Part shown: in pieces, positions 2,579-63,638 of the stretch
Layout: each line of letters starts with the position of its first letter
Numbering within the stretch: the stretch's first letter is position 1
Origin: Eledone cirrhosa
Taxonomy: Eukaryota
Assembly: GCA_964016885.1 (NCBI GenBank)
Contig: OZ024745.1
Coordinates: 52,948,001-53,012,000 of the forward strand
Direction of reading: 5' to 3'
Length of the DNA: 64,000 bases
The notes under the pieces: generated by a model
Told to the model about the DNA's origin: nothing
Seen by the model: the letters and a program-made list of their open reading frames with translations, nothing else
Databases searched by the model: none
Position numbers and translations under genes: made by a program

Positions 2579-2646
2579 TATATATATATATATATATATA
2601 TATATATACAATATTAAATAAATGGAAAACTATATTTATAAAACCA

Positions 2647-2721
2647 TATTTATTTCATTATATATATTTCGGGGATATCATATTAACAATATGCTATGCC
2701 TTCATCAGACAAAATACAATA
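2647..2721 (-). ncRNA. Minimal type I hammerhead ribozyme (family B)
   Basis: TATTGTATTTTGT-CTGATGA-stem II-GAAA-T-ATAT-A-TA^ATGAAATAAATA. Stem I gives about 12 bp with one bulge. Confidence 0.75.
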
Positions 2722-4347
2722 TAAACAGTTTTATAGATAAATAGATTCGACATACCGTAATAAACACCGACTTCATTTGAAGAGGTTTACTCTAGCAGTG
2801 AAAATTTTATACAGAGAAAAAGAAAAAAGAAAAAAGAAAGACAAAACGAAGAAAAAGAAAGAAGAAAAAAAAAGAAAAAAAAAAGAAGAAAAAAGAAAAA
2901 GAGGAAATGCATGGAACAAAATAGAGAGATGGAAAGATAGATAAAGCGAAGAGCTTCATGTAAAGAAACAGAAAGAGATATATATATATAGAGAGAGAGG
3001 AGATAGAGATAGATACATATATATATAGAAAATTAGGTAGTGGGAGGTCATTTTGAGTAAGTGTATCAATGATACATTTATTTATTTATTTATTTATTTA
3101 GCTCAAGTATTAATGTAAGGGAGATATATATATATAGAGAGAAAAAAATATATAGAGAGAGGAAAAAATAGCGAGAGAAAAAAAATTTAAAAATAGCCAG
3201 ACATATTCGAGGCGTAAAAAGCCCTATGTTTTAATGTATTAGTATTTATAAAACTTACACTATATTGTAAATATCAGTATTCCTGAATGAAACAAGTATC
3301 CATAATGTGTGAAAATTAATTATCTTATGTTTAGTTTTAAAAAATTCATATGTTTATGTGACAGCTACAAACATCCATGCGAATCCAACTGATTCACTCT
3401 GCAAACTCTGAGTTACCGGAAAACATTCTCAATGTGGTATAAAAATTTGAGCGTATTATTATTCCTGTCATTACTCTACAAGATTATCTATCAAGCAGTG
3501 TTATCTTTTTATTTTTAGTTTTGTTTATAATATAATATATATTTTTATTAGTATATTGAAATCTGCTCTCTATTTCTGCTTGATAGATAATCTTGTAGAG
3601 TAATGACAGGAATAATAATACGCTCAAATTTTTATACCACATTGAGAATGTTTTCCGGTAACCTAGAGTTTGCAGAGTGAATCAGTTGGATTCGCATGGA
3701 TGTTTGTAGCTGTCACATAAACATATGAATTTTTTAAAACTAAACATAAGATAATTAATTTTCACACATTATGGATACTTGTTTCATTTAGGAATACTGA
3801 TATTTACAATATAGTGTAAGTTTTATAAATACTAATACATTAAAACATAGGGCTTTTTACGCCTCGAATATGTCTGGCTATTTTTAAATTTTTTTTCTCT
3901 CGCTATTTTTTCCTCTCTATATATTTTTTTCTCTATATATATATATATCTCCCTTACATTAATACTTGAGCTAAATAAATAAATAAATAAATAAATGTAT
4001 CATTGATACACTTACTCAAAATGACCTCCCACTACCTAATTTTCTATATATATATGTATCTATCTCTATCTCCTCTCTCTCTATATATATATATCTCTTT
4101 CTGTTTCTTTACATGAAGCTCTTCGCTTTATCTATCTTTCCATCTCTCTATTTTGTTCCATGCATTTCCTCTTTTTCTTTTTTCTTCTTTTTTTTTCTTC
4201 TTTCTTTTTCTTCGTTTTGTCTTTCTTTTTTCTTTTTTCTCTCTTTCTTTCTCTCTGTATAAAATTTTCACTGCTAGAGTAAACCTCTTCAAATGAAGTC
4301 GGTGTTTATTACGGTATGTCGAATCTATTTATCTATAAAACTGTTTA

Positions 4348-4422
4348 TATTGTATTTTGTCTGATGAAGGCATAGCATATTGTTAATATGATATCCCCAA
4401 AATATATATAATGAAATAAATA
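4348..4422 (+). ncRNA. Hammerhead copy in the right arm, G12>A (probably inactive)
   Basis: CTGATGA at 4361. CCCCAAAA replaces CCCCGAAA at 4399, consistent with CpG decay. Confidence 0.65.
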
Positions 4423-4682
4423 TGGTTTTATAAATATAGTTTTCCATTTATTTAATATTGTAAATATACTCCAAATATTTGTCGAGTGCTTTTATATCAG
4501 TTATAAATATTTACTAGTTGTAACCCAACAATTTTAAATATAACTTTACATATATATATATATATATATATATATATAAGTGTGTGTGTGTATATATATA
4601 CATATATATATATATATATATATATATATGTATATATATATATGTATATATGTATATATATATATATATATATATATATATA

Positions 4683-4893
4683 TAACGAAGGAAATGTGGT
4701 AAGGAACCAAGTGGACCATAACGCACCAAAGTACTCAATACCTAGGGTAGTAGAGTGGGTAATAGGAACGAGTAGGACCCCGACGGCTGAGCTCAAGCCG
4801 TTTCGACGGCTAATTCTGGACTAAAATGCTTTTAGTCCAGAATTAGCCGTCGAAACGGCTTGAGCTCAGCCGTCGGGATCCTACTCGTTCCTA
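4683..4893. mobile_element. HHR family A palindromic insertion in (TA)n
   Basis: Long tailed arm 4683-4825 and short inverted arm ~4830-4893 ending GTTCCTA. Each arm holds the 3' half of an HHR: GAAACGGCT-TGAGCTC-AGCCGTC^GGG. Confidence 0.8.
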
Positions 4894-60883: not shown

Positions 60884-61967
60884 GAATCTATTATATAAGA
60901 TTATAAACGTTATCATTTACCAAAAGTATACTGTCTCATTAACACTTAGTATATCTCTCTATACCTAATTTTTTGGCAAATATGTGTATATTGTATAATA
61001 GCAAAATCATATTATTACTTTCGTATATCTCTGCATTTGGTTTTTTACATCTATATGTATAATGTATAATAACTTAATCATAATTACCGTTTCGGTTTAA
61101 CGCTATATATAGTTTGTGCAAATATAGATATATTGTACAATAACATATACATTATTTAGGTTTCATTCCTCTCATGAAGGTAGAACTAATATAGTGATTT
61201 AATATAATATAATAAATATTAATTTATTACGATAAATGCACACATATATGTATATATATATATGGCTGAAAAGCCTGCGTTAATCATTATACTTTAGACA
61301 ACGTATCTACTTGACAATAAATTTTTCGATATTTCTAACAATAAGTACTTCATAAATTTTACATACCGAAAATGATGACACTCTTATAGGTAATTTTTGT
61401 TAAAGATTACTTTTAAGGAAATATTCAACAGTTTATATTTCTCTTTCGCGGGCCTAGTTAATCCTTTAATTTGTTTTCATAAATTCAGAATTTTAGAAAT
61501 GTAACACATTTAAAAAATGTATAGAATCTACAAAATTAATAAATATAAATAACCATCAACTTTTAAAAACTTTAAAATTTGATTCTTCACCCTAAAATAA
61601 TATAAATTAAATATTTTGAAACTTAACCGCTTAGTCCTTAAGGGGAAACAATTTTTTCTCCATAAATTACTCCCCTTTATCTCTCCCTCTCTTTAATCAT
61701 CTATCAGTTGCCTTCATAACCTGTAATAAAATTATAATTCCAGAGACTTCTTCCTCGATAATCATAATTTGTAGTATCCCCCATTTTGAAATCTCTATAA
61801 CTGTTACATTAAAGCAACGTTTTTCTTACTCATACCTTCTCTATTAAATTTATTACGTTTTCACATTTTCTCATTATTAGGGTATAAATGTTGAGTTTTC
61901 TCATAGGTTAATCACTACCTTGATTAAATCTTAACCATTTAACATCTCAGGGTATGTCATGTATCAT

Positions 61968-62022
61968 AATATTTTGTCTGATGAGGACGTACGGGTATAC
62001 CTCTGAAATATGTATAATATTA
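61968..62022 (+). ncRNA. Degenerate family-B-like hammerhead at the probable PLE 3' end
   Basis: ATTTTGT-CTGATGA-GG...CCTCT-GAAA-T-ATGT-A-TA-AT; stems are weak. Confidence 0.55.
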
Positions 62023-62212
62023 ATAACTCTGGAAAATATTTTTCCGTAGAGTGGTTCCAATCTACTGTAAAACTTATTCTTTGATGTACTCATTGAATCT
62101 TGTTTAACTATTTAATATATATGTATATATATATATATATATACTGACCAACAACCGCTCTGCATAATCAGCTCCTGATTATTTACTAGATTTCTATAAG
62201 AATATAACATCA

Positions 62213-62309
62213 TTGATCTCAGTAGACAGGCGGGGTAGTTGGCCTTGATAAGCTTCAACAAAAGCGAAACATGTCATGTCGGCTTATCTCCCCTGTTTGC
62301 TGAGATCAA
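62213..62309 (+). ncRNA. Type I hammerhead with U3-A8 core variant and long stem I
   Basis: TTGATCTCAGTAGACAGG..GCC-TTGATAA-GCTT-CAACAA-AAGC-GAAA-CAT-GTC-ATG-TC^GGC..CCTGTTTGCTGAGATCAA. Confidence 0.8.
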
Positions 62310-63212
62310 AGTGAGTGAATTTGTCACTACTTTAAAACAATAGCTTACGGTCTTCAAAATGCTTTTAATTAAGCATAAAGTGTATTGCAAAATACATTAT
62401 ATATATATTGCTATTTCAGAGCTCCAATTCTAATATATATATATATATATATATATATATATATATATATATATATATATATATATATATATATATATAT
62501 ATATATATATATATTAGAGAGTGAGGTTTCTTTACAAGATGAAAAATAACAGAGGTGTCCTATTGCTGAAAATATAAGGAAAAAAGATTAACTCGAAAAT
62601 GCAACTGGAGTTTTATTTTTTTTTAAATATATATATATATTTATTTGGATCCTTTACCGGTATCGCAGTTCTTCTGCTTTTCAAAAGTAGTGTTGAGATG
62701 GAGGCTCTGTGGTTTTTCTCACATCTGGTTGGTCTTTGAATGTTACTTGTTTCATATGGAAAAAAGTGGCTCGAAACGCCAGGTTTTTAGAGAAGTAATT
62801 TGATTGCTTGGTGAATAAGTATAATAAATTTCGCGCAAGTTCGCGTTACAAAGTTCTTCAAACATATATTAGTGAAGTTTGGTTGGTTGATGCAGTCACC
62901 TGAATAAACACCAGTTTGTTTGAATTTCTTTTTACTTTAAAAAGTGGCTCACGAAGGCTTTTTTTTATAAATGTAATTTGATTGGTTATAAATGAAATTA
63001 TGACTGTCACGTGAACAAGTTTATTAAATTTCGCGCCCGTATTTGGGAATTTATTTTGTAGCCTTTTAGAGAAGTTTATGACAAACAAAAGATAATGGTC
63101 AAGAGAAATGGGATAGGGAGAATTGTCCTGGCTCAGTGAATATGGCTTGTTCGCTGGGGTGTCAGAGTTCAGACTTTCTATTGAAAGTAGAGATATGTGT
63201 GTTTATTTGTGT

Positions 63213-63638
63213 GTATACGTACATACATATATGTATACCGACGTACAGCAGTATGTATATGCATACATACATGCACACATATATATATGTACGTACGGGT
63301 TTACCGAACATTTATTATAATGTTCGGTTTGTTTGTAAACAAACAGCCCGAATTAAGCAGTACAGTGTTCGGCAACCATCGTTGACATTTTGTTCAACAC
63401 TGACAAAGGAACAATGAACTAGTTTCGAGCTTCTTAGCTGTCATCAGCATCGTATACTTTCCTGTCAGATGATTGAACGTTTGAAAGTATATACTTTCCT
63501 TATGCATATTAACGGCTGAGCAGCCTAATTTGCATATCGAGTGAGTTAGTCGGCCGGGCACACCGAAACGGATAAATGGATAAATCAGCCGTAATAAGAG
63601 TGAGAAATGAAATTTCATTGTTTCATTTTTTCCATTTA
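63213..63638 (-). mobile_element. HHR family J copy with inverted tail; HHR at 63411-63453
   Basis: ACGATG-CTGATGA-CAGCT-AAGA-AGCTC-GAAA-C-TA-G-TT^CATTGT. 63589-63638 is the reverse complement of the unit tail. Confidence 0.9.

Follow-up and report, generated by a model that had tools for sequence, protein, structure and literature searches.

Penelope-like elements (PLEs) that carry an endonuclease are known to insert with an inverted arm and a one-sided tail (PMC8557442, Fig. 2 legend; PMC3846280; PMC2377424, Fig. 1C). In the accessible portions of these three papers the tail is optional or often one-sided, given without counts and ascribed to endonuclease resolution, and the inversion is ascribed to self-priming, which in PMC3846280 is proposed to be antisense; how inverted and tandem ends form is a stated open question in PMC8557442. 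A more recent study of the anole Poseidon element PAc by target-primed reverse transcription (TPRT) in vitro (Frangieh et al. 2024, PMC11167929) describes cutting and extension of both target strands, two internal reverse transcriptase (RT) start sites that bound the tail, a protein-binding region downstream of both, a predicted dimer, and hammerhead cleavage that is dispensable. Here we analyse insertions of this kind in a 64,000-nt stretch (hereafter the window) of the 3.0-Gb genome of Eledone cirrhosa (GCA_964016885.1, OZ024745.1:52,948,001-53,012,000), and in loci sampled across that genome, and find that the two outer ends of an insertion are paired almost without exception.

Pairing of tail and internal ends

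Four families, designated A, B, J and K, were sampled in 80 random 10-kb stretches and in loci anchored on each family, the anchored sets being biased towards containing their anchor; the family A query identified 1,612 candidate genome places, and a genome search with the 63-nt core of A gave no hits, from which nothing follows. Copies in the window were located by self-comparison and reading, and type I hammerhead cores by a core scan. The strand of the hammerhead was taken as sense, so that every insertion has a sense 3' end at either extremity, a tail end (T) and an internal end (I); positions are counted relative to I. The distance from T to I is 79-80 nt in family A, 91 nt in B and 79 nt in K; the first-pass annotation of the window, made from sequence alone, had thus given the tail of B closely (about 90 nt) and underestimated that of A (about 65 nt).

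Of the 123 two-armed insertions in which both ends could be classified, 118 are T/I, comprising 62 from family A (n = 64, with two T/T and no I/I), 32 from B (n = 34, with two I/I and no T/T), 16 from J (n = 17, with one I/I) and all eight from K. These counts exclude 15 of the 113 complete two-armed A and B insertions, leaving 98, because an end was eroded or could not be placed, as well as 2/19 J copies, 1/9 K copies and every copy cut by a locus edge. In the random stretches together with the window, 15 of the 16 classifiable two-armed A and B insertions are T/I (P = 0.0003 against 50:50), and three more had an eroded end. An inverted, 5'-truncated arm with a tail at one end is likewise found in 118 of the 123, and the A, B, J and K copies of the window each present one T and one I end to (TA)n or TA-rich sequence and have a head-to-head joint. 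The layout is more than chance, and the proposal that the termini are defined rather than random is borne out. Single-arm copies also occur: family A has 18 with the T end and nine with the I end, and B has 13 and 12, respectively.

These insertions resemble published endonuclease-bearing PLEs (PMC8557442, PMC3846280 and PMC2377424) in their 5'-truncated, inverted head-to-head copy, one-sided tail, AT-rich or (TA)n targets and partial tandems, and differ in the tail, which is 79-91 nt here and 30-40 nt there. The two start sites bounding the tail resemble those of PAc, and extension of both target strands would be a further point of agreement; the PAc study (PMC11167929), whose accessible text does not address the inverted structure, describes neither strand bias of the start sites nor homology to the target, whereas here each T end is coupled to an I end and both agree with the target over 3-6 nt. 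The layout and the element classes were already known, and what the T/I pairing adds is to turn a descriptive feature into a near-strict quantitative rule. A literature search of titles and abstracts, with older key papers and most subscription journals beyond its reach, found no paper proposing one-to-one strand pairing of two sites.

Element families and start-site anatomy

Families A and B are Hydra-clade PLEs as judged by motifs, on which the assignment rests because Pfam and PDB sequence searches with the PLE open reading frames (ORFs) gave no match. A long A copy (L119) contains a 739-amino-acid ORF with an RT motif YHDD at 348 and, C-terminally, a GIY-YIG motif YIGLT at 606, and a long B copy (L210) has the same domain order with one frameshift. 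The A copy has RWR at 37 and DKT at 117 but no GxKF, and the B copy has RWR and DKT. In the linker and around E and N, A reads CNCPDGSIF (the last C of the CxCx5C linker being changed in this copy), CNLCSEE and CKH, and B reads WNCRHKSNC (first C changed), CDLC and CRH. The linker is intact in a Hydra-type GIY-YIG endonuclease fragment that follows (TA)n in the window (59919..60332, plus strand; 35% identity to the A ORF, E 2e-19). Hammerhead cores were found by the scan in B, and the A core, with long helices II and III, was read by eye in long arms. The ends of both families adjoin (TA)n, and the tail of L119 and L210 corresponds, as it does in other PLEs, to the sequence that separates the 5' pseudo-long terminal repeat (pLTR) from the start of the ORF.

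Craig et al. 2021 (PMC8557442) describe the Hydra clade as having hammerheads, (TA)n targets and a GIY-YIG domain at the C terminus; the shared features extend to the RWK-like motif, DKT in place of DKG, the CxCx5C linker and CxxC/CxH around E and N, whereas the units of A (3.6 kb) and B (4.2 kb) exceed the usual <3 kb. Three short A and B motifs had no match in one supplementary file of that paper. The RT with C-terminal GIY-YIG, the motifs and the hammerheads of A and B thus support the PLE origin put forward in the first-pass annotation. Its attribution to Naiads fails, because the endonuclease of A and B is C-terminal, the motif is DKT and hammerheads are present, whereas Naiads are described in the same source as having an N-terminal endonuclease, DKA and no canonical hammerhead.

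Families J and K are non-coding, tandem-unit passengers. J is built from tandem copies of a 440-nt unit, every one with a type I hammerhead; no ORF was seen, and the family appears retrozyme-like in sequence. It forms head-to-tail arrays of at least 19 units (>8 kb) at L197 and L199, the former ending in a normal inverted I arm. K has a 562-nt tandem unit in which a relaxed core scan of both strands found no canonical hammerhead, a result with which a non-canonical ribozyme remains compatible. The non-coding J unit of about 440 nt with its type I hammerhead resembles animal non-LTR retrozymes as described in PMC7229834 and bioRxiv 10.64898/2026.07.22.740005; J and K differ from these in lying in PLE-type T/I two-armed insertions, and K also in having no detectable canonical hammerhead. 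The word 'inverted' is absent from PMC7229834.

In full-length templates, the bases that follow each end are TAT at both ends of A and at the unit end of J, and TATAT or ATATAT in B, and thereby match the (TA)n target by 3-6 nt. All six start sites of A, B and K begin TAT or ATAT, and at all six a stem of the form RCTC-N6-22-GAGY starts 7-10 nt downstream, a pattern found in 0.3-0.8% of random windows in A and B units. Since TAT and hairpin are duplicated at both sites, the tail reads as the spacer between two copies of one signal, an arrangement that would fit a dimeric enzyme on one RNA. Two fixed ends had also been described for J, which holds for the tail end, whereas the internal end is a zone (unit positions 355-384) in low-complexity, TA-rich sequence. 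A stem of the form ACTC...GAGT occurs in the tail of an additional (TA)n-anchored family in the window (10041-10099, 40336-40462 and 1746-1893), which has a compact hammerhead core at 10041-10079.

Arm lengths, arm sources and the route of integration

Were one cDNA, or an antisense RNA (PMC3846280), to fold and be copied back to the internal site, the second arm would have to lie inside the first and only the T arm could supply the tail. Such fold-back is a published hypothesis for head-to-head palindromes and would account both for variants shared between arms and for symmetric joints, the two arms lying within 25 nt of equal length in 43/62 A and 11/32 B insertions, e.g. at L208 (-1813/-1805) and in the window copy at 2609-4549. 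The I arm, however, extends >100 nt further 5' than the T arm in seven A and eight B insertions, by up to 3.2 kb (T/I reach -68/-2617 at L126 and -122/-2035 at L215), which fold-back cannot produce, and these 15 insertions therefore require two RNA-templated copies. Nor can it yield non-overlapping arms, yet 10 of 94 A and B T/I insertions have a T arm that ends between -26 and +20 relative to the I site; the target microhomology at both ends is, moreover, what priming predicts. The opposite asymmetry, with the T arm >100 nt longer, is found in five A and four B insertions. Fold-back, an option raised in the first-pass annotation, is accordingly excluded as the general or sole route and improbable as the principal explanation, but may contribute to the symmetric class.

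The annotation had also held that the junction differs from copy to copy. It does vary, but with pile-ups near -60 in A and at -164..-182 in B: of 107 young A arm ends, 46 fall at -64..-59 and only four between -65 and -150, and of 42 B ends, 13 fall at -182..-164. Initiator-like sequences adjoin both pile-ups (TCATT in A, with its A at -61; TCACT in B, with its A at -183), and PLE promoters have been located in the pLTR (PMC2377424). Several arms ending at -60 carry extra T in sense that long copies do not, as stutter at a template end would be expected to give. The position of the pile-ups would be consistent with run-off at the 5' end of the transcript. A few joints also raised the idea of a cap-templated base at this 5' limit.

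In L1 twin priming, the second strand of the target serves as a primer at an internal position of the RNA, and the inverted arm is joined to the first cDNA. The present insertions share these features, and differ in that the internal site is fixed, there is no poly(A), the arms usually overlap and the joints mostly contain extra bases rather than microhomology. The contrast with typical L1 twin priming drawn earlier, on the ground of extensive overlap between arms, was nevertheless overstated, because a non-overlapping class exists: the arms at 41228, 51747 and 63213 overlap little or not at all, as do those of the 10/94 above, which look as classical twin priming on one RNA would. Tabulation of 26 young asymmetric joints gave four with 3 nt of microhomology, one with 1 nt, two blunt and 19 with extra or unassigned bases, some of which may be reference divergence; with 3 nt or more expected by chance in 5-9% of joints, there is no clear enrichment. 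At two loci (L124:4573-7410 and L128:5649-7578) 16-19 nt from the end of the adjoining arm are duplicated within the joint, which points to slippage or to templated insertion as the ends were joined.

Rare alleles were compared between arms in the 39 insertions with at least 100 comparable sites. The two arms have 90 rare alleles in common, against 6.4 in control pairs, and the partner arm outscored every other arm in 13 of the 39. Sharing extends to asymmetric cases (L124, L127, L133, L153 and L200), and private variants common to both arms were seen by eye at L200, L153, L202, L206 and L208. Both arms therefore derive from one source locus or lineage. Candidates for arms from two sources did not hold: at L200 and L208 multiple alignment showed that private variants are shared and that the signal came from low-complexity tracts, and at L203 no excess remained after masking.

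These results bear on whether the arms are independent single-arm insertions stacked in one microsatellite, or fold-back artefacts of assembly. Single-arm T and I copies do exist, in the numbers given above, and (TA)n tracts gather many insertions; but no (TA)n lies between the arms at inspected joints, independent arms would yield T/T and I/I combinations, and the arms share rare alleles yet differ by private changes, so that we regard this explanation as very improbable. An assembly artefact is unlikely in particular because the arms diverge (96.9% identity over 906 nt in 2609-4549, with substitutions and gaps) and because the T/I asymmetry is not what assembly fold-backs produce. Head-to-head J joints, running from antisense to sense arm, are moreover present in raw reads of two restriction-site-associated DNA (RAD) runs, at breakpoints other than the window's own joints: 45861 to 46681 (one start in each run, with 36 and 68 reads), 46562 to 46671 (7 and 34 reads) and, at 46727, a switch of strand with three starts (34 and 60 reads). 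The left flank is connected to the tail end of J by single-copy contigs.

A further alternative is that two RNAs of the same locus, perhaps paired through their hammerheads, are held one per subunit of an asymmetric dimer and give one cDNA each. This would explain overlapping arms without strand displacement, as well as three A insertions in which a T arm reaching -64 stands beside I arms of 1.5-2.6 kb (L121, L126 and L136). Hammerhead dimers have been proposed for minimal PLE ribozymes, and the palindromic helix III seen in the B and J hammerheads is thought to allow them (PMC4209133). Such a scheme, on the other hand, needs an extra rule against T/T and I/I, which make up only 5/123, and no insertion has arms of two source lineages, the sole candidate (L200) being the low-complexity alignment artefact noted above. 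Pairing through hammerheads, as the first-pass annotation had suggested, is further disfavoured by K, which obeys the T/I rule with no canonical hammerhead found, by copies that extend intact across the cleavage site, and by Naiads, which form the same structures without hammerheads (PMC8557442). We consider the two-RNA alternative rather unlikely, although a candidate of more weight than fold-back.

On balance, the two-armed copies probably result from two reverse transcription events, primed on opposite nicked (TA)n strands at two fixed RNA sites, and probably on one RNA. The underlying claim of the first-pass annotation, that both target strands prime at two defined RNA positions, is well supported, being the interpretation that best accounts for the T/I rule; extension of both strands and the use of two start sites have been shown in vitro for an anole PLE (PMC11167929). 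In the mechanism that we propose, a dimeric RT-endonuclease would bind both hairpin sites, most simply on one RNA, so that each site would be used once, and each nicked ...ATA-3' end would pair with the UAU of its site. The T-primed copy would then either stop at the I site or displace the I-primed cDNA and continue; alternatively, the T primer might use the 5' pLTR and the I primer the 3' pLTR of the same transcript. Both cDNAs would end by falling off, or by run-off at the RNA 5' end, giving abundant short palindromes, and host end-joining would connect the two cDNA ends head to head.

Several observations weigh against this mechanism. Five of the 123 insertions violate the T/I rule (two T/T, three I/I). 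Neither J site has the RCTC...GAGY hairpin, nor does the I site of the 40473 family, although other stems fold at these places. A rare allele is shared at only 18 of the 39 insertions, and old subfamilies of B account for part of the excess. Genome sequence does not distinguish a single RNA from two transcribed at the same locus, nor either of these from gene conversion that later made the arms alike. Part of the -60 pile-up in A is due to ascertainment, as 30 loci were retrieved with a query that itself extends to about -65. Outside the modal zone, an excess of arms of equal length is seen in B (3/11, P = 0.0005), which fold-back explains equally well, with no enrichment in A (4/22, P = 0.42); a contribution of fold-back may find room here. 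Finally, the PAc start sites are described, in the accessible text, as having no strand preference, and the start site as not homologous to the target (PMC11167929).

More generally, and tentatively, PLEs might integrate by programmed twin priming, in which one RNA carries the UAU-plus-hairpin signal twice and thereby loads two RT subunits, one for each target strand. Were this so, both ends of an insertion would be RT-made, the tail would be the spacer between signals, thousands of short palindromes would be double run-off copies, and a single mechanism, distinct from the TPRT of long interspersed nuclear elements (LINEs), would account for the tail, for the inverted pLTR and for how retrozymes are mobilised. 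An RT that writes onto both strands of the target would stand apart from the enzymes of LINEs and R2, with a bearing on retroelement evolution and on RNA-templated insertion tools. The counts reported here exclude fold-back as the sole route and name cis-signals, the UAU, the hairpin and the 5' limit, which are open to mutagenesis in the in vitro system already available.

Insertions and other repeats in the window

Five A, three B, two J and one K copy had been listed in the window, and all were confirmed. The A insertions comprise 4686..4891 (T left, I right, with a near-symmetric joint at about 4826-4830 and both arms reaching -60), 31230..31472 (a T arm on the left reaching about -83 and an I arm on the right reaching about -77), 41228..41329 (a 27-nt I arm left and a T arm right ending at about +8, without overlap), 51747..51824 (T left ending at +9, about 8 nt of I arm right) and 51850..52003 (T left to about -70, I right very short). 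The longest B insertion, 2609..4549, has I left and T right, with arms of about 900 nt and a loop of about 78 nt near 3520-3597; a type I hammerhead core at 2659..2708 (minus strand) has an 8-bp helix I and the palindromic helix III, and a second lies at 36945-36896, within the B insertion 36847..37200 (I left, T right). The third, 41355..41673 (T left to -103, I right to -124), retains an intact type I core in each arm (41542-41494, minus strand; 41577-41625, plus strand).

The J insertion 45818..46806 starts at the T end with 1.9 minus-strand units, which are joined at 46641 to a short I arm on the right, with hammerheads at 46133-46103 and 46577-46547 (both minus strand); that at 63213..63638 has a long I arm on the left, with a hammerhead at 63447-63417 (minus strand), and a T arm of about 50 nt on the right. 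The K insertion (35649..36457) has a short I arm left and 1.3 units right, ending at T, and a tandem duplication of about 525 nt (95%; 34506-35634) lies directly to its left. A further symmetric two-armed family is represented by 40473..40848, which contains a hammerhead at 40603-40525 (minus strand) and is extended on its right side only, by about 85 nt.

Target-site duplications are not discernible inside (TA)n. Around the composite of the B and A insertions at 2609-4549 and 4686-4891, about 97 nt of unique sequence is directly repeated (2483-2579 and 4990-5088) and resembles a large target duplication (2396-2579 against 4893-5088 in self-comparison, 89%); a shorter flanking duplication occurs at L003.

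Hammerhead cores of other families lie beside (TA)n at 42860-42914 and 62231-62301. In an Rfam scan of the window, the only matches were to microRNAs, driven by microsatellites, and to a weak hammerhead at 62231, none of them reaching the gathering score. Another (TA)n-anchored family has two copies in opposite orientation, 59734-59858 and 63674-63880, the former lacking about 75 nt internally, and two more fold-back elements with about 77% arm identity are found near microsatellites (39875-40028 and 40899-41053). The remains of a frameshifted ORF at 6715-9084, with no Pfam match, resemble a non-LTR retrotransposon with a C-terminal restriction-like endonuclease. A 195-nt repeat resembling short interspersed nuclear elements is present in more than ten window copies, some of them in tandem, including 11125-11320, 14005-14199, 24871-25277, 28530-28727, 38772-39162, 42186-42376, 50466-50659 and 59304-59554, and about 47 nt of it also occurs inside the 3' untranslated region of family A.

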